Shown piece after piece: positions 7,095 through 53,275 of a stretch of 64,000 bases of DNA. This DNA comes from Candidatus Dormiibacterota bacterium (lineage in GTDB: Bacteria > Chloroflexota > Dormibacteria > Aeolococcales > Aeolococcaceae). The DNA lies in NCBI GenBank assembly GCA_049582105.1, contig JBAUTG010000005.1, forward strand, positions 2,672-66,671. The letters run 5' to 3'. The position numbers were made by a program, and so were the translations under genes. Within the stretch, counting starts at the first letter, position 1; the number at the start of each line of letters is the position of its first letter. Under the pieces are notes generated by a model. That model did no database searches and was not told the origin of the DNA. It saw nothing but the letters and a program-made list of their open reading frames with translations.

Positions 7095-7814
7095 TCACCA
7101 CAGAAATGGGACAAGTCGCCGCGTGTGAGCGGCGTACGACGTGTATTCCGGAAAGGCACGGGTGAGCAAGCCTTCCTCGAAGCGAGCTCGGAGCATCTGC
7201 ACCGCGATGAACGGGACGAGCGCGAGCGTCGCCCAAAGACCCGGCCGGGCCAGCACGAGCGCGACGGCGGCGAGGATCTCGGCCGCGTAGAGCGGGTGCC
7301 GAACGACGCGGTACGGGCCACTGGTCACAAGGCGGCGCGCCTCGGGAATGATGCTGAGGCTCCGGCGCAGATAGAGCAGTCCGTACACACCCAGCGCAAA
7401 CGCGCCGAGCGTCAGGGGAACGGCCGCGTCGCGGATGAGCACCGGCGGAACCAGCAGCACCGGCAGCGGGAAGGCGCCGACCACGAGGAGCATCGTCGTC
7501 CCGACCAGCCCTGCGGCGCGCGCGACCACGCGCCCGTCGCGCGCTTTCGGGCGCGGACGCACCAGATAGATCCCGACGGGGATGACGCAGAACGCGAGGT
7601 ACACCCCGGTCGTCACCGGTCCGGCGAGCACGCCGCCGAGGTGGTCGTGCCTGGGAAGATCGTGAACCTGCGCAAGCAGGTTCATCAGCACGCGATAGCC
7701 AAGCACGGCAAACAACACGGCCGGTAGCGCACGACCGAACACGAGGAAACGGATCTCCTCGACGCGACGTGCCACGTCGCCACGGCGTGCTGGAATCGCT
7801 ACCGCCTGGGCCAT
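7095..7814 (-). CDS. isoprenylcysteine carboxyl methyltransferase (ICMT/PEMT) family membrane methyltransferase
   Basis: It has the C-terminal signature 'GPYRVVRHPLYAAEIL' and a multi-TM N-terminal half. Confidence 0.75.
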   Translation of the reverse strand: MAQAVAIPARRGDVARRVEEIRFLVFGRALPAVLFAVLGYRVLMNLLAQVHDLPRHDHLGGVLAGPVTTGVYLAFCVIPVGIYLVRPRPKARDGRVVARAAGLVGTTMLLVVGAFPLPVLLVPPVLIRDAAVPLTLGAFALGVYGLLYLRRSLSIIPEARRLVTSGPYRVVRHPLYAAEILAAVALVLARPGLWATLALVPFIAVQMLRARFEEGLLTRAFPEYTSYAAHTRRLVPFLW

Positions 7815-8048
7815 GCGCCAACTCTAGGTCAGCTGTATTCAGAGCGACGCGTCTGTATCGCGGTTGTCATCGAATCACCATGGTTTCTCGTCGTCTGAGC
7901 AGTGTCCGCCGGCGTGTCCGATCCTTCGTTACCAATCTTTAGCACGCAGGCCATTCCGTTGCCGCAGCAGGGGTACACACTCGCTTCAGTCGGAACAGAG
8001 CAACAAGCCCTGGCCCGAAAATAAAACCCGAAAGGAGGTGAAACCGGA

Positions 8049-8249
8049 ATGGATATGCTGAGCACCCTGTACCTTCGCGCAACTGAGTTTATCGCTCGCA
8101 AGCGTGAGGAGGCTGAGGAAGGCCAGGGCATGGTTGAGTATGCGCTCATCCTCGTCCTTATCGCCATCGTCGTCATCGTCATCCTGCAAGTCGTCGGCAA
8201 GCAGGTCAACAACGTGTTCTCGAACATCAGCAACGGCCTGGCCCAGTAG
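8049..8249 (+). CDS. flp: Flp/Fap family type IVb pilin precursor
   Basis: The sequence 'EEAEEGQG|MVEYALILVLIAIVVIVIL' shows the Flp motif: a G-cleavage site followed by XXXXEY and a hydrophobic stretch. It is 66 aa long, with a strong SD (GGAGGTG) 10 nt upstream. Confidence 0.85.
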   Translation: MDMLSTLYLRATEFIARKREEAEEGQGMVEYALILVLIAIVVIVILQVVGKQVNNVFSNISNGLAQ

Positions 8250-8274
8250 CTTTCGCAAGCAACCAGGACAGTCA

Positions 8275-8314
8275 AGAGGAGCCGCCCCACGGGACGGCTC
8301 CTCTTTTTTATTTG
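8275..8314 (+). terminator. rho-independent terminator downstream of flp
   Basis: There is a perfect 10-bp stem (agaggagccg at 8275-8284 pairing with cggctcctct at 8295-8304), a 10-nt loop, and then ttttttattt at 8305-8314. Confidence 0.8.
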
Positions 8315-8333
8315 TCGTGAACATCGCGCAGCG

Positions 8334-9665
8334 TTGCTGCAGCACGGCATTCCACGTCGGCACGAATCGCCGTACCATGCGCACGATGCACGGCGGATGC
8401 GAGGTGCGGCGGTGATCCGCGTTCTGATAGCGGACCGAGTGACGCGAATCGTCGGAGACCTCGAGAAGCTCGCGCCCTTTGCTGAGACCGTCGACGTCTG
8501 CGGTGTCGCCCACCAACCGACGGCGGTCATCGAGGAGGCGTGGCTGCGCCAGCCCGATGTGCTCCTCCTCCACGAGACCTTCGCCGACCCGTCGGGCGCC
8601 GACTTCGCCGCCCATCTCGGGTCCGTGTCACCCGCGACCCGGGTGCTCCTCATGACCTCGAGCGAGCCGGCTGACGCGACCGCCTGGGTCGCGGGCACCA
8701 TCCATGACGGCGCCGACGGCACCGCGCTGTTCGAGGCGATTCGCGTCACGGCCGGGGTCATCCGGCCACGCGGTGGCGCGGGCGCCGAAACCTCGGAGCC
8801 GGACGCCGAGGCGCCGCCCGTGGTGGTCCCCGACCGCGAGCACCACGGACGCGCGACACTCGTCGTCGTCTTCTCGGGGAAGGGCGGCTCCGGGACCTCG
8901 ATGGTCGCCACCAACCTCGCCGTCGCGCTGGCGGGTAGCGCGGAGGGGCGGACCGTCCTCATCGACTCGGACCTCCAGTTCGGCGATGCCGCAGCGATGC
9001 TCCATGTGGAGAGCCATCTGCTGACGATCGCCGACCTCGCGGCTGCCGGTGAGGACATCGAGGCCGTCTTCCTCGACGATGTCCTGGCAACCGGGCCCGG
9101 CGAGGTCCGCGTCCTCCGCTCGGCGCCGAGCCCCGAGCTCGCCGACATCGTGACCGCGTCACGGCTTCGCGCAATGATCCGCGCGATCTCCACGTCGTAC
9201 GAGTTCGTGGTGGTCGACACACCCTCTCATCTCGACGAGCGCATGGTCGAGGTCTTCGATCTCGCCGATCGTGTGCTCGTGGTGAGCAGCTACAACCTGA
9301 CCGCCGTGCGCAGCGCCAAGGCGTCGATCGCGCTCCTCGAAGCGCTCGGGGTCACCCGCGACCGGATCGGAGTCGTCCTCAACCACACACGGCCGCGCGT
9401 GAGCTTCCGGCGCGAGGACGTCGAGGAGATCCTGGGCTGCCGCGCCCTGGCCGACCTGCCCTACGACCCCCGGGTCGACCAGTCGCTCGACTCGGGATCG
9501 CCGATCGTCCTCGCCCTGCCTCACGCCGAGCTGAGCCGGAGGCTCGTCATGCTCGCCGGGAGCGTGTCGTCGCCGTCAACCGCGCCTGGCACGTCTCCTT
9601 CCGAGGAACCGATGCCCGCACCGCCGCCAACCTACCGCCGGCGATTCAACCTGGGGCGGAGGTAA
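8334..9665 (+). CDS. cpaE: CpaE/TadZ-like ParA/MinD-family ATPase with an N-terminal pseudo-receiver domain (paralogue 1)
   Basis: It has the deviant Walker A 'VVFSGKGGSGTSMVATNLAVALA'. The N-terminal receiver-like fold lacks the phospho-acceptor Asp ('DVLLLHETF'). The start is probably ATG 8397 or GTG 8412, the latter preceded by GAGGTG. Confidence 0.75.
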   Translation: MLQHGIPRRHESPYHAHDARRMRGAAVIRVLIADRVTRIVGDLEKLAPFAETVDVCGVAHQPTAVIEEAWLRQPDVLLLHETFADPSGADFAAHLGSVSPATRVLLMTSSEPADATAWVAGTIHDGADGTALFEAIRVTAGVIRPRGGAGAETSEPDAEAPPVVVPDREHHGRATLVVVFSGKGGSGTSMVATNLAVALAGSAEGRTVLIDSDLQFGDAAAMLHVESHLLTIADLAAAGEDIEAVFLDDVLATGPGEVRVLRSAPSPELADIVTASRLRAMIRAISTSYEFVVVDTPSHLDERMVEVFDLADRVLVVSSYNLTAVRSAKASIALLEALGVTRDRIGVVLNHTRPRVSFRREDVEEILGCRALADLPYDPRVDQSLDSGSPIVLALPHAELSRRLVMLAGSVSSPSTAPGTSPSEEPMPAPPPTYRRRFNLGRR

Positions 9666-49318: not shown

Positions 49319-50794
49319 CTACACGGTGTCGCGGATCACGTCTCCGAGCCTGCGCACCGCTCCATCGGCCGCGCACTCGTCCAGCCCGCCGAACCCGATG
49401 ATGAGCCCGGGTCGAGACGCTCCGTTCGCGTAACAGGTCGACAATGCCGTCGGGAACATGCCGAGCCGCGACGCGGTGCGGGCAACCGCCTTGTCGTCGG
49501 CTCCGTCCGGGAGAAACGCGACGAGATGGAGTCCCGCATCGGCGTTGCCGACCGTGAGCACGTCGCCGGCGTGGCGCTCGATCGCTCCGATCATGGCGTC
49601 GCGGCGAGCGAGATAGACGGCGCGCATCCGGCGCAGGTGGCGCGCGAAGTGCCCTTCCTTCAGAAAGTCCGTCAGCACCAGCTGATAGAGGGTGGGAGAG
49701 AACAGGTCGAACGTCTCGCGCATGCGCACGAACCGGGTTATGAGCTCGTGCGGGACGACCACATAGCCCAGCCGGATGGAGGGGAACAGGACCTTGCTGA
49801 AGGTGCCGAGGTAGATGACCCGCCCGCTGGTGTCCATCCCCTGCAGCGCGCCCAGCGGACGGCTCGAGTAGCGGTACTCGCTGTCGTAATCGTCCTCGAG
49901 GATCCAGGCGTTGTTGCGCTCAGCCCATCCGAGCAGCTCGAGGCGGCGCGACACGGCCATCGAGACCCCGAGCGGGTATTGATGCGACGGCGTGACGTAC
50001 GCGAGCTTCGCCCGCGGCCCGAGGCGTGTGATCGCGGCGACGTCGATACCGTCGCGATCGACCGGGATCGGGACGACGTTAGCCGCCGTGGTCGCGAGAG
50101 CATGACGCGCCCCCCGATATCCGGGGTCCTCCATGCAGACCACCGAGTCGGCCGTCGTCAGCGACATCGCCGCCACTCGCAGTCCCATCTGCGACCCGGA
50201 GAGAACGATGACCTGGCTCGCGTCGCAGTCGACCGCGCGAGCGGTTCGAAGGTATGCGGCGATCGCCTCGCGAAGCGGTGCGTATCCCGCGGCGTCTCCA
50301 TAGGCAAGGAGGTCAGGGGTGAGGTGCGCCGCGTGCTTGCGCGTCAGCCGAGCGAAGGTTTCATGCGGAAAGCGATCGAGCGCGGGGATGCTTCGGAACG
50401 TCCCCGCACCCTCGACGCGCGCCACGGCATCGTGCCCCGGAGGCGCGACCGGCGCCCGCACCGGCAGTGGCGGAGACATCGGCCGGCGCAGACGCATCGG
50501 TCTCGCGACCTCGTCGGGGATGCAGTCGCGCACGTACGTCCCCGATCCGACCTTGCCTTCGAGGTATCCCTCGTGGAGGAGCTGCTCGAACGCGTTCAGC
50601 ACCGGAAGACGAGAGATCTGCAGTTCCGCGGCGAGCGTTCGAGTGGAAGGGAGTCGCTGACCGGGTCCGAGGCGGCCGGAGAGGATGGCCATCCGATAAC
50701 CGTCGTAGATCTGGGTGTAGAACGGCACACCGGAGGCTCGGTCAAACGCGATGTACGGGGAGAGACCGGCGCTCGATGCCGTCTTCACCGCCAC
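49319..50794 (-). CDS. MocR/GabR family regulator (GntR-type HTH fused to a class I aminotransferase-like PLP domain)
   Basis: The N-terminal HTH is 'LPSTRTLAAELQISRLPVLNAFEQLLHEGYLEGKVGSGTYV'. The C-terminal ~380 aa are aminotransferase-like. Confidence 0.85.
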   Translation of the reverse strand: MAVKTASSAGLSPYIAFDRASGVPFYTQIYDGYRMAILSGRLGPGQRLPSTRTLAAELQISRLPVLNAFEQLLHEGYLEGKVGSGTYVRDCIPDEVARPMRLRRPMSPPLPVRAPVAPPGHDAVARVEGAGTFRSIPALDRFPHETFARLTRKHAAHLTPDLLAYGDAAGYAPLREAIAAYLRTARAVDCDASQVIVLSGSQMGLRVAAMSLTTADSVVCMEDPGYRGARHALATTAANVVPIPVDRDGIDVAAITRLGPRAKLAYVTPSHQYPLGVSMAVSRRLELLGWAERNNAWILEDDYDSEYRYSSRPLGALQGMDTSGRVIYLGTFSKVLFPSIRLGYVVVPHELITRFVRMRETFDLFSPTLYQLVLTDFLKEGHFARHLRRMRAVYLARRDAMIGAIERHAGDVLTVGNADAGLHLVAFLPDGADDKAVARTASRLGMFPTALSTCYANGASRPGLIIGFGGLDECAADGAVRRLGDVIRDTV

Positions 50795-50919
50795 GACCTC
50801 GAAGGGTGCTTGGTCGCCGGGTCACAAGGAGGCGACGCATGAAGCGCCGTGGGACAGAGACTCGCGTAGCCCGAACGACCAAGCCGGCATAGCGTGAAGC
50901 GGGCATCGTGAAAACGCGA

Positions 50920-50962
50920 GTACCACTTCCGATCACGTGATACCAGCCATTCCAGCGTACCA
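50920..50962. promoter_or_regulatory. cluster of (A/G)TACCA direct repeats upstream of the MocR-family gene: candidate MocR operator
   Basis: GTACCA lies at 50920-50925, ATACCA at 50940-50945 and GTACCA at 50957-50962, with a fourth GTACCA at 51122-51127. GabR/PdxR-type regulators bind direct ATACCA-like repeats. Confidence 0.35.
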
Positions 50963-51298
50963 ATCCGCGTCGAACGCATGGTGCCATTCTGTGGTTTTCG
51001 AGGAACTGCCTCATCACCCAGAAGGATGATTTTCGCAGTGCTCCTGTCGCCGGTCATGCAGCGCATCGCGCGCGAGACATGCAACCTCGTGGTCACTCGA
51101 AGCATGATCGCGCCTTGTGCCGTACCACTTTCTCGAAATGATCTCGTGCCATTTTGCGAGTTTCCGCGAAGCAACTCATCACCCGTTGGAGTGAATTCCT
51201 CGACGAATCGTGTCGGGCGCCGGAAGACGTTTCGTATCGTGATTGCGCGAGTGCACCAATCGACTTGCTGAGGAGGCGCAGATGACGTCGCAACGCGC

Positions 51299-51547
51299 AT
51301 GGCGGCAGCGGAGTCTCATCACGTCCGCAGCGCTGACGCAACGCTGCTTGTCGCCGCATGCGGCAGCACGAGCAATGCGACCGGGCCCTCGGTGAACAAG
51401 ACCACCGCCACGTTCGCCGAGGGCCGCGACGGTCAGGCGTCGACAGCGACTGCCGCAGCGGCGAACGCCGCCATCGACGGGAAGGTCCAGTCCGGGTGGA
51501 CGTCGCAGTCGGGCGGCGGTGTCGCGCCCCACCCGGCACGGCCCTGA
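51299..51547 (+). CDS. possible small lipoprotein (weak call; may be the frameshifted remainder of an ORF starting at 51282)
   Basis: It has a lipobox-like 'LLVAAC'. An ATG at 51282 in another frame has an ideal SD (GAGGAGG plus 5 nt). The 3' end overlaps the convergent HAD gene by about 115 bp. Confidence 0.25.
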   Translation: MAAAESHHVRSADATLLVAACGSTSNATGPSVNKTTATFAEGRDGQASTATAAAANAAIDGKVQSGWTSQSGGGVAPHPARP

Positions 51548-52179
51548 CGCCGGTTGATCCACACCGTCGGCAAGCCCGCGCTGTGCGCCGGGGTGTGGTC
51601 GTGGAAAAGGCTCTGAGCCACGTGAAGCAACCGCCCGTGCTCGACGCCCAGGTCGCCGGCCGCGCGAAGCAGGGCTTCGAAGTTGCGCGCCGCAGGCTTG
51701 TACGAGCCGACGTCCTGCGCTGTGACGATCGCGTCGAAGTGTATGTGCAGTCTCGCGTTGCTCCCGGCGAAGGACGTGCGGTCAACATTGGAGAGAATGA
51801 TCAGCTTGTATCGCGCCGCGAGCAACGCGAGTGCTGCCGGCGAGTCCGGGAATGCCGGCCATCCGGCGACCGACCGCGCAAGACGCTCACAGTCTTCGAT
51901 CGTCGCCGTCGTACCGACAGCTGTCGCGAGCGTTCGCATCGCGGCGGCGAGGATGTCCGGGTACAGCGCCCCGGGGGTGCGCTCCTCCTCCAGGGCTTCG
52001 GCGGTCGCGTAGCGCTCGAGCAGTTGCTCGGGGGTGAGCGCCACTCCCTGCCTCGCCGCCCACGGTGCGAGCGCGGCGGAGATCCCGGACTCCCAATCGA
52101 TGAGCGTCCCGTAGCAGTCGAAGCTCAAGGCGTCGAAGTCCGTGAGCAGGGCTGGTTCCTTGTTCACGGACGCGATCAT
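51433..52179 (-). CDS. HAD-superfamily hydrolase (haloacid dehalogenase type II-like)
   Basis: It contains 'FDCYGTLIDWE' (HAD motif I), 'LIILSNVD' and 'SYKPAARNFEA'. The start was set at ATG 52179 ('MIASVNKEP'). Confidence 0.75.
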   Translation of the reverse strand: MIASVNKEPALLTDFDALSFDCYGTLIDWESGISAALAPWAARQGVALTPEQLLERYATAEALEEERTPGALYPDILAAAMRTLATAVGTTATIEDCERLARSVAGWPAFPDSPAALALLAARYKLIILSNVDRTSFAGSNARLHIHFDAIVTAQDVGSYKPAARNFEALLRAAGDLGVEHGRLLHVAQSLFHDHTPAHSAGLPTVWINRRQGRAGWGATPPPDCDVHPDWTFPSMAAFAAAAVAVDA

Positions 52180-52210
52180 CCGCCTTGGACGGCGCCGCGA
52201 CCGGTCGGGA

Positions 52211-53275
52211 ATGCCGAGGCCGGGTGGCGAGGGCGCACTCACCTCTTGCGGCCGCTTGGGGCTAGGCTTCGCCACCGTGGAGCGATACGCCGACGGGCCC
52301 GCCTACCTGGGACCCACCACGTTCTGCCGGGTGCCGTCCCTGACCGCTCCCGATCAGCTCGACGAGGTGCGACCGGATATCGCCATCGTCGGCGCCCCGT
52401 GGGACGACGGCGTGACCTATCGCCCGGGGGCTCGTTTCGGCCCGCGCAGCGTGCGCACCGCGTCGTACCAATCCGCCGAATGGCACCTCGAGCTCGAGGT
52501 CGCGCCACTCGACGTGCTCCGTGTCATCGATTACGGCGACGCGATGTGCCTTCCGGGCATGGCAGAGGAGTCGCACACCGCGATCCGAACCCGCGTCGGC
52601 GAGGTTGCGCAGCGTCACATCATCCCGATGGTGATCGGCGGTGATCACTCGATCACCTGGCCCTCGGCCACGGCCGTCGCCGCCGCATACCCACCCGGCA
52701 GCCTCGGCATCGTGCACTTCGATGCACACGCCGACACCGGCAACAACCAGTGGGGGAACCTGTACTCACACGGGTCTCCGATGCGCCGGCTCATCGAGTC
52801 CGGCGTTGTCCCGGGGCGCAATTTCGTGCAGGTCGGCCTGCGCGGATACTGGCCCCCGAAGGACGTCTTCGACTGGATGCGCGAACAGGGGATGCGCTGG
52901 CACCTCATGGGCGAGCTCCGCGATCGAGGCGTGGTCCCCGTGATCGAGGACGCGATCGCCCAGGCGCTCGACGGACCAACCCACATCTACCTCTCCGTCG
53001 ATATCGATGTGCTCGATCCGGGCTTCGCGCCGGGAACGGGAACGCCGGAGCCCGGCGGCATGCAGCCGATTGACCTCCTCGCCGCCATTCGGCAGATCGC
53101 CCTGCGCACCGACCTCGTCGCGATGGATGTCGTCGAGGTCTCGCCGCCGTATGACTGGGCGGAGCTGACCTCGCAGAATGCGCATCGATGCCTGCTCGAG
53201 GCGATCTCCGCGCTCGCCGTCAAGCGTCGCAACGGAGACCTGCCGGCGCCGCAGAATCAGTCGGAAAGCGCTTGA
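52211..53275 (+). CDS. agmatinase / ureohydrolase (arginase family)
   Basis: The arginase-family metal-binding blocks are present: 'IVGAPWDDGVTYRPGARFGP', 'GGDHSITWP', 'HFDAHADT' and 'SVDIDVLDPGFAPGTGTPEPGG'. The start was set at ATG 52211 to avoid overlapping the divergent HAD start. Confidence 0.8.
   Translation: MPRPGGEGALTSCGRLGLGFATVERYADGPAYLGPTTFCRVPSLTAPDQLDEVRPDIAIVGAPWDDGVTYRPGARFGPRSVRTASYQSAEWHLELEVAPLDVLRVIDYGDAMCLPGMAEESHTAIRTRVGEVAQRHIIPMVIGGDHSITWPSATAVAAAYPPGSLGIVHFDAHADTGNNQWGNLYSHGSPMRRLIESGVVPGRNFVQVGLRGYWPPKDVFDWMREQGMRWHLMGELRDRGVVPVIEDAIAQALDGPTHIYLSVDIDVLDPGFAPGTGTPEPGGMQPIDLLAAIRQIALRTDLVAMDVVEVSPPYDWAELTSQNAHRCLLEAISALAVKRRNGDLPAPQNQSESA

Follow-up and report, generated by a model that had tools for sequence, protein, structure and literature searches.

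A probable ancestral divergent control region between a MocR-family regulator gene and a deleted solute-binding protein gene in Candidatus Dormibacteraeota

Introduction

Which genes does the long, repeat-rich region next to a MocR-family regulator gene control, and through which of its sequences? The question is raised by positions 50795-51281 of a 64,000-nucleotide stretch of DNA from a Candidatus Dormiibacterota bacterium (contig JBAUTG010000005.1, assembly GCA_049582105.1), the whole of which we call the window. The region sits between the MocR open reading frame (ORF; 49319-50794, minus strand) and a HAD hydrolase gene (51433-52182, minus strand), which is the next real gene. An earlier note on this DNA had described it as a divergent regulatory region of roughly 55% GC, possibly with a leader or attenuator, that controls an unidentified plus-strand target. 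The lower GC content is real, with local 200-bp windows at 55.5-60% against a window mean of 67.5% (standard deviation 2.8 for 487-bp windows); the interval as a whole stands at 58.1%, and 50898-51281 at 56.3%. No third-position GC signal is found in 50820-51280, though it is strong in the flanking genes.

With a probability of about 0.7, we interpret the region as the ancestral divergent control region of a PdxR/GabR-like MocR gene on the minus strand and a gene for a solute-binding protein (SBP) of the SBP_bac_5 family on the plus strand, within one clade of Candidatus Dormibacteraeota. The window now holds an orphaned, still intact operator array, of which the plus-strand half drives only a frameshifted stub.

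The plus-strand target and its loss

We compared the window with 15 related Candidatus Dormibacteraeota loci (L numbers below). The closest relative found is L081, from a Candidatus Dormibacteraeota metagenome-assembled genome (MAG), in which the regulator is 93% identical. Here, the gene of a 617-residue SBP_bac_5 protein lies between the HAD and regulator genes, divergent from the latter across a 483-bp gap. This order, in which the HAD and SBP genes converge and the SBP and MocR genes diverge from a gap of ~490 bp, is intact in L081, L001, L002, L003, L005, L093 and L104, and both gene order and spacing are maintained among loci whose regulators share 73-93% identity.

When the L081 protein was searched against the window with tblastn, only residues 1-18 (51282-51335) and, in another frame, residues 20-52 (51338-51436) were recovered. 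The frame is broken by a 1-nt deletion near 51336, after 18 codons of a lipoprotein-like signal peptide, and an intact SBP_bac_5 protein (PF00496, ~617 residues) is not encoded, the stub having no Pfam match. By blastn, the deletion junction falls between 51437 and 51453, past which the window sequence aligns with the 3' end of the HAD gene. Since residues 1-52 are all that is left and the junction can be placed, ~1.8 kb has been deleted in the window. The plus-strand target, which the earlier note had left unnamed, is therefore a dead lipoprotein gene, present as a truncated, frameshifted remnant of 52 codons. The last ~6 codons and the stop codon of the HAD gene are now antisense to this stub (51433-51453), and the HAD protein ends in AVAVDA, as compared with CRAARDR in L081; the deletion thus rewrote the end of the neighbouring gene as well. 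Two further ORFs can be removed from the annotation as artefacts and not genes: an 82-residue 'lipoprotein' (51299-51547), made of the frameshifted stub and HAD antisense sequence, and a 428-residue ORF (51358-52644), made of the stub and the antisense of HAD.

By comparison of the loci, the SBP gene has been lost independently in at least seven lineages, the window included, all of which keep the regulator together with most of its control region. The deletion reaches from box C2 (Table 1) to codon 218 in L004, starts ~30 nt past unit 2 in L085 and at the Shine-Dalgarno site in L086, and takes out codons ~30-537 in L100/101. The gene is also deleted, with different end points, in L102/103 and L105/106. 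Three of the deletions are each seen in two independent assemblies. Repeated loss of the target, with persistence of the regulator and the array, suggests further targets for the regulator or an important role for its self-control.

As a separate observation, the SBP frame breaks near codon 213 in L001 and L005, both from long-read-derived MAGs, which may reflect indel error or early pseudogenisation.

Paired boxes and a duplicated module

Rightwards from the MocR start, the region consists of an RNA element, box pairs A and B, unit 1, a spacer, pair C with unit 2, the sequence TATCGT, a Shine-Dalgarno site and the SBP start (Table 1). The four (A/G)TACCA hexamers in direct orientation that the earlier note had listed are borne out: RTACCA occurs at 50920, 50940, 50957 and 51122, each time on the plus strand. 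From 24 copies on both strands of the window, ~0.065 would be expected in this 208-bp span, and the cluster exceeds chance (Poisson P ~7e-7; ~2e-4 corrected for position in the window). RTACCA is not the conserved core, however. ATACCA at 50940 is not conserved in the relatives, and GCACCA, GGACCA and GTGCCA also occur at boxes. The conserved core is CCAYT(Y), present in six boxes that form the three pairs A, B and C. In each pair an ACCAYT(Y)-type box is followed, after 17 nt, by a GCCATT(Y)-type box, 24 bp from start to start, or ~2.3 helical turns, which is near two turns and out of phase. RCCAYTY is clustered too, with 5 of its 43 window copies inside 233 bp (P ~4e-7).

Conservation was assessed in two intergenic alignments, of 6 regions (alignment A1) and 10 regions (alignment A4), and box positions were counted within the extracted intergenic segment, which begins beside the MocR start codon. 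The CCA core of box A1 lies 134-135 bases into this segment in 14 loci; in window-type loci the first four cores stand at 134/158/171/195, one base further in L005. The 24-bp spacing of boxes A1 and A2 is found in all loci (box A2 reads GCCACTC in one further locus, L105), and boxes C1 and C2 are 23-24 bp apart in all loci. In both alignments the conserved blocks are sharply bounded and the spacers between them unalignable, with block positions kept to within 1 bp in 14 loci. The boxes are thus kept in sequence and position across the 15 related loci. The proposal of a divergent regulatory region beside the MocR gene is supported.

The 39-nt imperfect direct repeat (50981-51019 and 51146-51184, 165 bp from start to start) was also confirmed, with 28/39 identical positions (72%) where 27/39 had been counted before. 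Both copies are conserved among the relatives; together with the conservation of the boxes, this is the opposite of what the earlier note had named as grounds for rejecting its proposal. Pairs B and C are each trailed, 29 bp beyond their second box, by a unit with the consensus CTCATCACCC-N3/4-GGAKTGAWTT, and the 39-mer is therefore the centre of a ~77-nt module that is present as a tandem duplicate with an offset of 165 bp. The left arm of unit 1, CTCATCACCC, is identical in 15 of the 16 listed loci, with CTCCTCACCC in L104, and among the 14 window-type loci the unit shifts by no more than 1 bp (starts at 221-222). In unit 2, the right arm GGAGTGAAT is nearly invariant. Read on the opposite strand, the right arm (ATCATTCTG or ATTCACTCC) resembles a degenerate inverted box, so that each module can be read as a pair of direct boxes plus a single inverted box. 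No further copies of the module are present elsewhere in the 64-kb window. A decayed copy of the promoter segment, GCGCATCGCG, occurs in the window at 51061, compared with CGTATCGTG at 51233 (repeat family D8).

Table 1. Positions of the features in and around the region, numbered along the window
Feature	Position	Strand	Remarks
MocR-family (PdxR/GabR-like) regulator	49319..50788	-	489 residues from conserved start; Pfam, NCBIfam and PDB matches
Candidate structured RNA, 93 nt	50805..50897	-	Ends 17 nt upstream of MocR start; helices P1 and P2, hairpin P3
Box A1, GTACCACTT	50920..50928	+	ACCAnTTC invariant in alignment A4 (10 sequences)
Box A2, CAGCCATTC	50944..50952	+	24 bp past A1; GCCATTC invariant in alignment A4
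Box B1, GTACCAATC	50957..50965	+	CCAnT invariant; position fixed
Box B2, GTGCCATTC	50981..50989	+	24 bp past B1; opens 39-mer copy 1; CAT.G..CCATT.T invariant
Unit 1, CTCATCACCC-AGAA-GGATGATTTT	51010..51033	+	Near-palindromic (TCAyC...GrTGA); 29 bp past B2
Variable spacer between modules	51034..51115	+	Unalignable across clades; length varies, 67 bp shorter in L093
Box C1, GTACCACTT	51122..51130	+	Duplicate of B1, offset 165; CCACTT invariant
Box C2, GTGCCATTT	51146..51154	+	24 bp past C1; opens 39-mer copy 2; CCATT invariant
Unit 2, CTCATCACCC-GTT-GGAGTGAATT	51175..51197	+	29 bp past C2; conserved in 13 loci
CGTATCGT, probable -10 (TATCGT, TAnnnT type)	51233..51240	+	Conserved in 12 loci, including rearranged L087 and L011
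Shine-Dalgarno site GAGGAGG of SBP gene	51270..51276	+	GAGGAG invariant, 5-7 nt before ATG wherever the gene is kept
SBP_bac_5 lipoprotein remnant	51282..51436	+	Two frames; lipobox LLVAAC; rest (~1.8 kb) deleted
HAD type II hydrolase	51433..52182	-	Pfam Hydrolase, TIGR01428

The regulator and its candidate operators

The MocR ORF as listed (49319-50794) has 491 codons. A start reading M/V-K-T/A-A at 50788 is kept in 10 loci, and the true start is, on this sequence evidence, most likely 50788 and not 50794. The protein combines an N-terminal GntR-type winged helix-turn-helix (PF00392, residues 26-88, E 1.8e-14) with a C-terminal domain like the fold-type-I aminotransferases (Aminotran_1_2, PF00155, residues 152-430). 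Its pyridoxal phosphate (PLP) lysine motif (FSK), GTFSKVLFPSIR, aligns with GAFSKSLIPSVR in PdxR and GTFSKSLLPGLR in GabR. The best PDB match is PdxR from B. clausii (7PQ9, 1.5e-71), followed by GabR (4N0B). Among the NCBIfam models, the cut-off was passed only by PdxR (NF052282, 438 bits, cut-off 320); the GabR model scored 306, below its cut-off of 600. To name the regulator PdxR would be to go by sequence score alone. An exact-protein look-up returned no record for the protein from the window.

The family offers precedents for such boxes. GabR binds two direct ATACCA repeats, of which the CC is critical, in the divergent gabR-gabTD region (PMC4756830), and the PdxR site is made up of a pair of direct repeats plus a single inverted one (PMC10450172). 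More generally, MocR motifs comprise 2-4 boxes, most commonly two direct and one inverted, with the direct repeats spaced by about two or three helical turns; boxes in either orientation are conserved within an orthologous group, and the regulons often include transporters, among them ABC (ATP-binding cassette) systems of the dpp/opp type (PMC5320631).

Like the B. subtilis GabR, the regulator studied here joins a GntR winged helix to an aminotransferase-like domain with a PLP lysine motif, has a divergent target, and is accompanied by direct repeats with a CCA core between the regulator and target genes. Dual control, with activation of the target and autoregulation, is therefore plausible, as for GabR. 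PdxR of Bacillus clausii and Corynebacterium, to which the best solved homologue (7PQ9) belongs, provides the logic of two direct and one inverted repeat, matched here by C1 and C2 in the same direction and the inverted right arm of the unit. Similar boxes also occur outside the clade. CGAGAGTACCAC and TGGTCAT boxes are found 50-100 bp upstream of MocR orthologues (58-61% identical) from Thermoanaerobaculia and Thermomicrobiales, with CGAGAGTACCAC in Thermoanaerobaculia; the gene divergent from these orthologues is a different one. Across 74 orthologues from other phyla, 32 copies of RTACCA/TGGTAY lie within the upstream 250 bp, where 11.9 are expected. Conservation, fixed phasing, this cross-phylum enrichment and the precedent in the family together support the suggestion that the boxes are candidate operators of the GabR/PdxR type, and by sequence and analogy the direct-repeat boxes are the best operator candidates in the region, fitting an array of such operators.

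Several points weigh against this interpretation. The boxes are linked to this particular MocR protein by conservation and analogy, and the expectation of 11.9 takes no account of the lower GC content of intergenic DNA. The bridge is 18 bp here and 29 bp in GabR, and a single module covers ~77 bp, where the sites of GabR and PdxR cover 47-48 bp, so that two or more dimers or a further protein may take part, above all at the CTCATCACCC unit. A consensus scan of 50700-51450 for sigma-70 promoters and terminators revealed a sigma-70-like promoter on neither strand, and no conserved TAnnnT precedes the MocR leader. All of the SBP deletions come from metagenome assemblies, that of the window from a single one. 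Finally, the RNA element is separated from the MocR gene in some loci, as detailed below.

The comparisons also set limits to the naming of the system. The boxes in the window are (G)TACCAYT and GCCATTY and not two ATACCA repeats, the lone ATACCA (50940) being unconserved; three pairs and two palindromic units take up ~280 bp, where GabR has a single 47-bp site; the target encodes a solute-binding protein and is not gabT/gabD; the intergenic region has ~490 bp; and the sites are predicted. In the PdxR comparison, the divergent gene is SBP_bac_5 and not pdxS/pdxT, pdxST being absent among the called genes of L081, and the module is not 48 bp long and is tandemly duplicated. Together with the GabR score below its cut-off, this context shows that the regulator is not a member of a GabR or PdxR regulon. 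In contrast to the MocR regulons described in PMC5320631, many lineages have here lost the local target and kept the operator.

We propose that MocR dimers, with two winged-helix domains on long linkers, would bind the pairs of direct repeats and, probably, the inverted half-site of each unit as well. The regulator, with a PLP-linked effector, would activate the SBP promoter from module C, and modules A and B, by the regulator's own gene, would serve autoregulation. The structured element, as a probable part of the MocR 5' leader, would modulate translation or stability of the MocR message. We know of no described MocR regulon from Candidatus Dormibacteraeota, and the comparison provides an operator map for a MocR protein in this uncultured phylum, comprising the box consensus, the 24-bp pairing, the duplicated module and a fixed distance of 83 bp to the promoter.

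A sigma-54 reading of TGGCAC, from the reverse complement of box B2, was rejected: the -12 element is missing and the stretch is unconserved.

A candidate structured RNA upstream of the MocR start

Between the MocR start and box A1, a candidate structured RNA is encoded on the minus strand. It is closed by P1, an 11-bp helix of GCUUGGUCGUU (50884-50874) with GGCGACCAAGC (50818-50808). Its further parts are P2 (an inner helix), P3 (a hairpin that varies) and blocks that are unpaired and invariant, namely GUCUCUGYCCC (11 consecutive invariant nucleotides) and a GCCUCCUUG-like block. The inner hairpin shifts register between subgroups. Across the 15 distinct sequences compared, all from a single clade and therefore reflecting few independent events, four pairs of P1 show compensatory double changes (UA/CG, GC/AU) with G-U intermediates, and just 2 of the 165 cells in this helix are unpaired. 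For the whole structure, 89.6% of the cells are paired, compared with 29-51% when the partners are slid, and the observed covariation was reached in 0 of 500 shuffles. RNAalifold independently predicts P1 and P2. The element has no codon periodicity, with variable columns distributed 18/17/17 over the three phases, as opposed to 17/13/76 in the MocR coding region.

The minus strand is favoured. Canonical cells number 315/351 on this strand and 268/351 on the plus strand, where the G-U intermediates of P1 become C-A mismatches, and the minimum free energy (MFE) is -53.8 kcal/mol (z -2.4) as compared with -45.5 (z -0.8). We searched Rfam 15 (4227 families) at gathering thresholds over the whole window and at E <= 10 over 50600-51500; the former returned only a tRNA elsewhere, and the best match in the latter had E > 5. 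The checks by Rfam and covariation that the earlier note had recommended for the leader thus gave a divided result: nothing relevant was found in Rfam and the plus-strand units lack compensation, and covariation was present in the minus-strand element only. R1, a covariance model built from the 50805-50897 element, scores 101 bits at the element, its sole match in the window; each locus has one copy, and the 74 MocR loci from other phyla have no match.

In 14 of the 15 element-bearing lineages the element ends exactly 17 nt before the MocR start, and the MFE fold shows its 5' flank (UCAC) paired to the MocR start codon, which suggests a translational leader. Most likely, the element belongs to the 5' leader of MocR, where it would modulate translation or stability. 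It shares with the leader RNAs and riboswitches of Rfam a closing helix around conserved unpaired blocks, a position near a start codon and compensatory substitutions; unlike them, it matches no family, is limited to one locus type of one clade, and is not always followed by the gene (L087). We therefore flag it as a small RNA candidate with covariation support, no Rfam match, a very narrow distribution and an uncertain role.

Two arrangements speak against a role as MocR leader and against strict coupling to MocR. In L087-L092 the order is MocR gene, 340 bp, element, boxes, SBP gene and permease gene, so that the element stays by the boxes, with the MocR gene elsewhere and non-coding DNA downstream of the element. 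In L102/L103 the element and box A1 are deleted and the MocR gene is retained. A small RNA and a role at the DNA level therefore stay as rivals, and the function of the element is uncertain because one rearranged lineage keeps it apart from MocR.

The first rival, which we regard as possible and rather improbable, is that the element is a small RNA of its own, transcribed divergently, or else a structured 5' end made from the promoter region of the SBP gene, and travels with the SBP module. In L087-L092 it keeps its position and orientation by box A1 and the SBP module, with the MocR gene upstream and on the other strand, and P3 still pairs well (GAGACG/CGTCTC). The 340 bp that follow it on its own strand in L087 neither code for protein (GC by phase 0.69/0.66/0.62) nor show homology (no BLAST match), with no remnant of the MocR N-terminus, and L102/L103 do without it. 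Against this stand the 17-nt distance in 14 of 15 lineages, the pairing with the start codon and the absence of a terminator after the element; L087 is possibly a recent rearrangement in which the element has yet to decay.

A role as DNA appears less probable again. The arms GCTTGGTCG and CGACCAAGC would then be inverted TGGTC/GACCA half-sites for MocR or another regulator, and the conserved blocks would bind protein. Their ACCA/TGGT-like cores do resemble boxes B1 and A1 and the TGGTCAT of distant orthologues, and the element always adjoins box A1, also in L087. However, the arms are ~70 bp apart from centre to centre, and four positions changed in a complementary way through intermediates that pair on the minus strand only. 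L004/L100 (TCA) and L105 (CTGG) no longer have the CCA core and still pair, and on the minus strand, but not on the plus strand, the fold exceeds shuffles in stability.

We consider it doubtful, and only speculate, that the element represents a new class of cis-regulatory RNA: a leader that binds a metabolite or protein, for example a ligand related to PLP or to amines, or MocR itself, with the CCUCC-like block and the start-codon pairing gating translation. If true, a layer of RNA control would be added to a MocR-type PLP-dependent transcription factor; to our knowledge, no RNA element has been tied to a MocR control region before. A full-text literature search found no paper on riboswitches in Candidatus Dormibacteraeota.

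Pairing of the CCUCC block with the SBP ribosome-binding site was discarded as not robust, the block varying (CCUCG, CCUUC, CCUCU) and the GAGGAG of the SBP gene being invariant. On the plus strand of the element (50827-50842), AAGGAGGCG...ATG resembles the SBP ribosome-binding site, GAGGAGGCG...ATG (51270-51284). A 17-residue ORF at 50840 behind AAGGAGG was rejected, its start codon being unconserved in alignment A1, and since the ATG that follows AAGGAGGCG is unconserved in the relatives, there is probably no small ORF.

The SBP promoter and the question of a plus-strand leader

TATCGT (51235-51240), 41 nt upstream of the SBP ATG, is by its sequence the probable -10 region of the SBP gene. 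Its distance from box C2 is 82-84 bp in 13 of the 13 loci that keep both, despite the variable spacer. L086, one of the loci in which the SBP gene was deleted, carries the mutated form GGATCGT.

The promoter position bears on the suggestion of a leader or attenuator on the plus strand. It is very unlikely that the downstream gene has a long leader, riboswitch or attenuator, to which the repeats belong. In favour are the unusual length of the intergenic region (~490 bp) and the ability of unit 1 to form a weak hairpin followed by TTTT. The boxes are, however, fixed relative to TATCGT, just 41 nt ahead of the ATG; the scan of 50700-51450 yielded 0 terminator-like sites; there is no relevant Rfam match at E <= 10; the ~85-nt stretch between the modules is unconserved and of variable length; and the plus-strand fold near the MocR end is no better than shuffles. 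In the units, a left-arm change of TCAC to TCCC (L001, L003, L086, L093, L100) is uncompensated in the right arm, and the unit was rejected as an RNA hairpin because compensatory changes are absent. This part of the earlier proposal is thus unsupported.

A small protein gene that contains the repeats, the 97-residue ORF 50978-51271 (+), is hardly credible. This ORF is open in the window, and the 39-mers, offset by a multiple of three (165), encode VPFCxF...SSP twice in frame, yet it has neither third-position GC bias nor a Pfam match, and its middle is unalignable in the relatives, with indels that are not multiples of three and 67 bp missing in L093. Debris of a mobile element or of a REP-like (repetitive extragenic palindromic) repeat family, which the low GC and the internal repeats might recall, is just as implausible, in that units, pairs and RNA element are single-copy in the window and absent from the 74 other loci, and synteny and spacing are conserved in the clade.

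Rearranged and distant loci

In L087 (4483-5135; also in L088-L092) the MocR and SBP genes share a strand, and the SBP gene is the first of a complete ABC operon that includes a BPD_transp_1 permease. Between the two genes are one module, without duplication, and the RNA element; the DNA upstream of MocR is without boxes. In L011 (3300-3930), from a more distant member of the Dormibacteraeota (MocR 62% identical), the SBP gene stands upstream of MocR in tandem; box-and-unit modules occur in both orientations around a divergent 436-residue gene, with no RNA element. In L099 (2700-3012), a MocR orthologue (67% identical) diverges from an Amidohydro_3 gene, and an Opp-type ABC system is arranged convergently; a unit-like ACATCCCCCATCAGAATGA lies upstream, without CCAYT pairs and without the RNA element. 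A scan of metagenomes with a pattern of the RNA core gave 3 matches only, 1 of them by chance (L083); the pattern was probably too strict.

Beyond the HAD gene, the window carries a gene of the arginase/agmatinase family at 52142-53275 (+). A second intergenic stretch of low GC content (56-58%, ~500 bp) is present at 7830-8330 of the window, flanked by a membrane-protein ORF (7095-7814, -) and a CpaE/TadZ-like ORF (8334-9665, +), both labelled from reading their translations.

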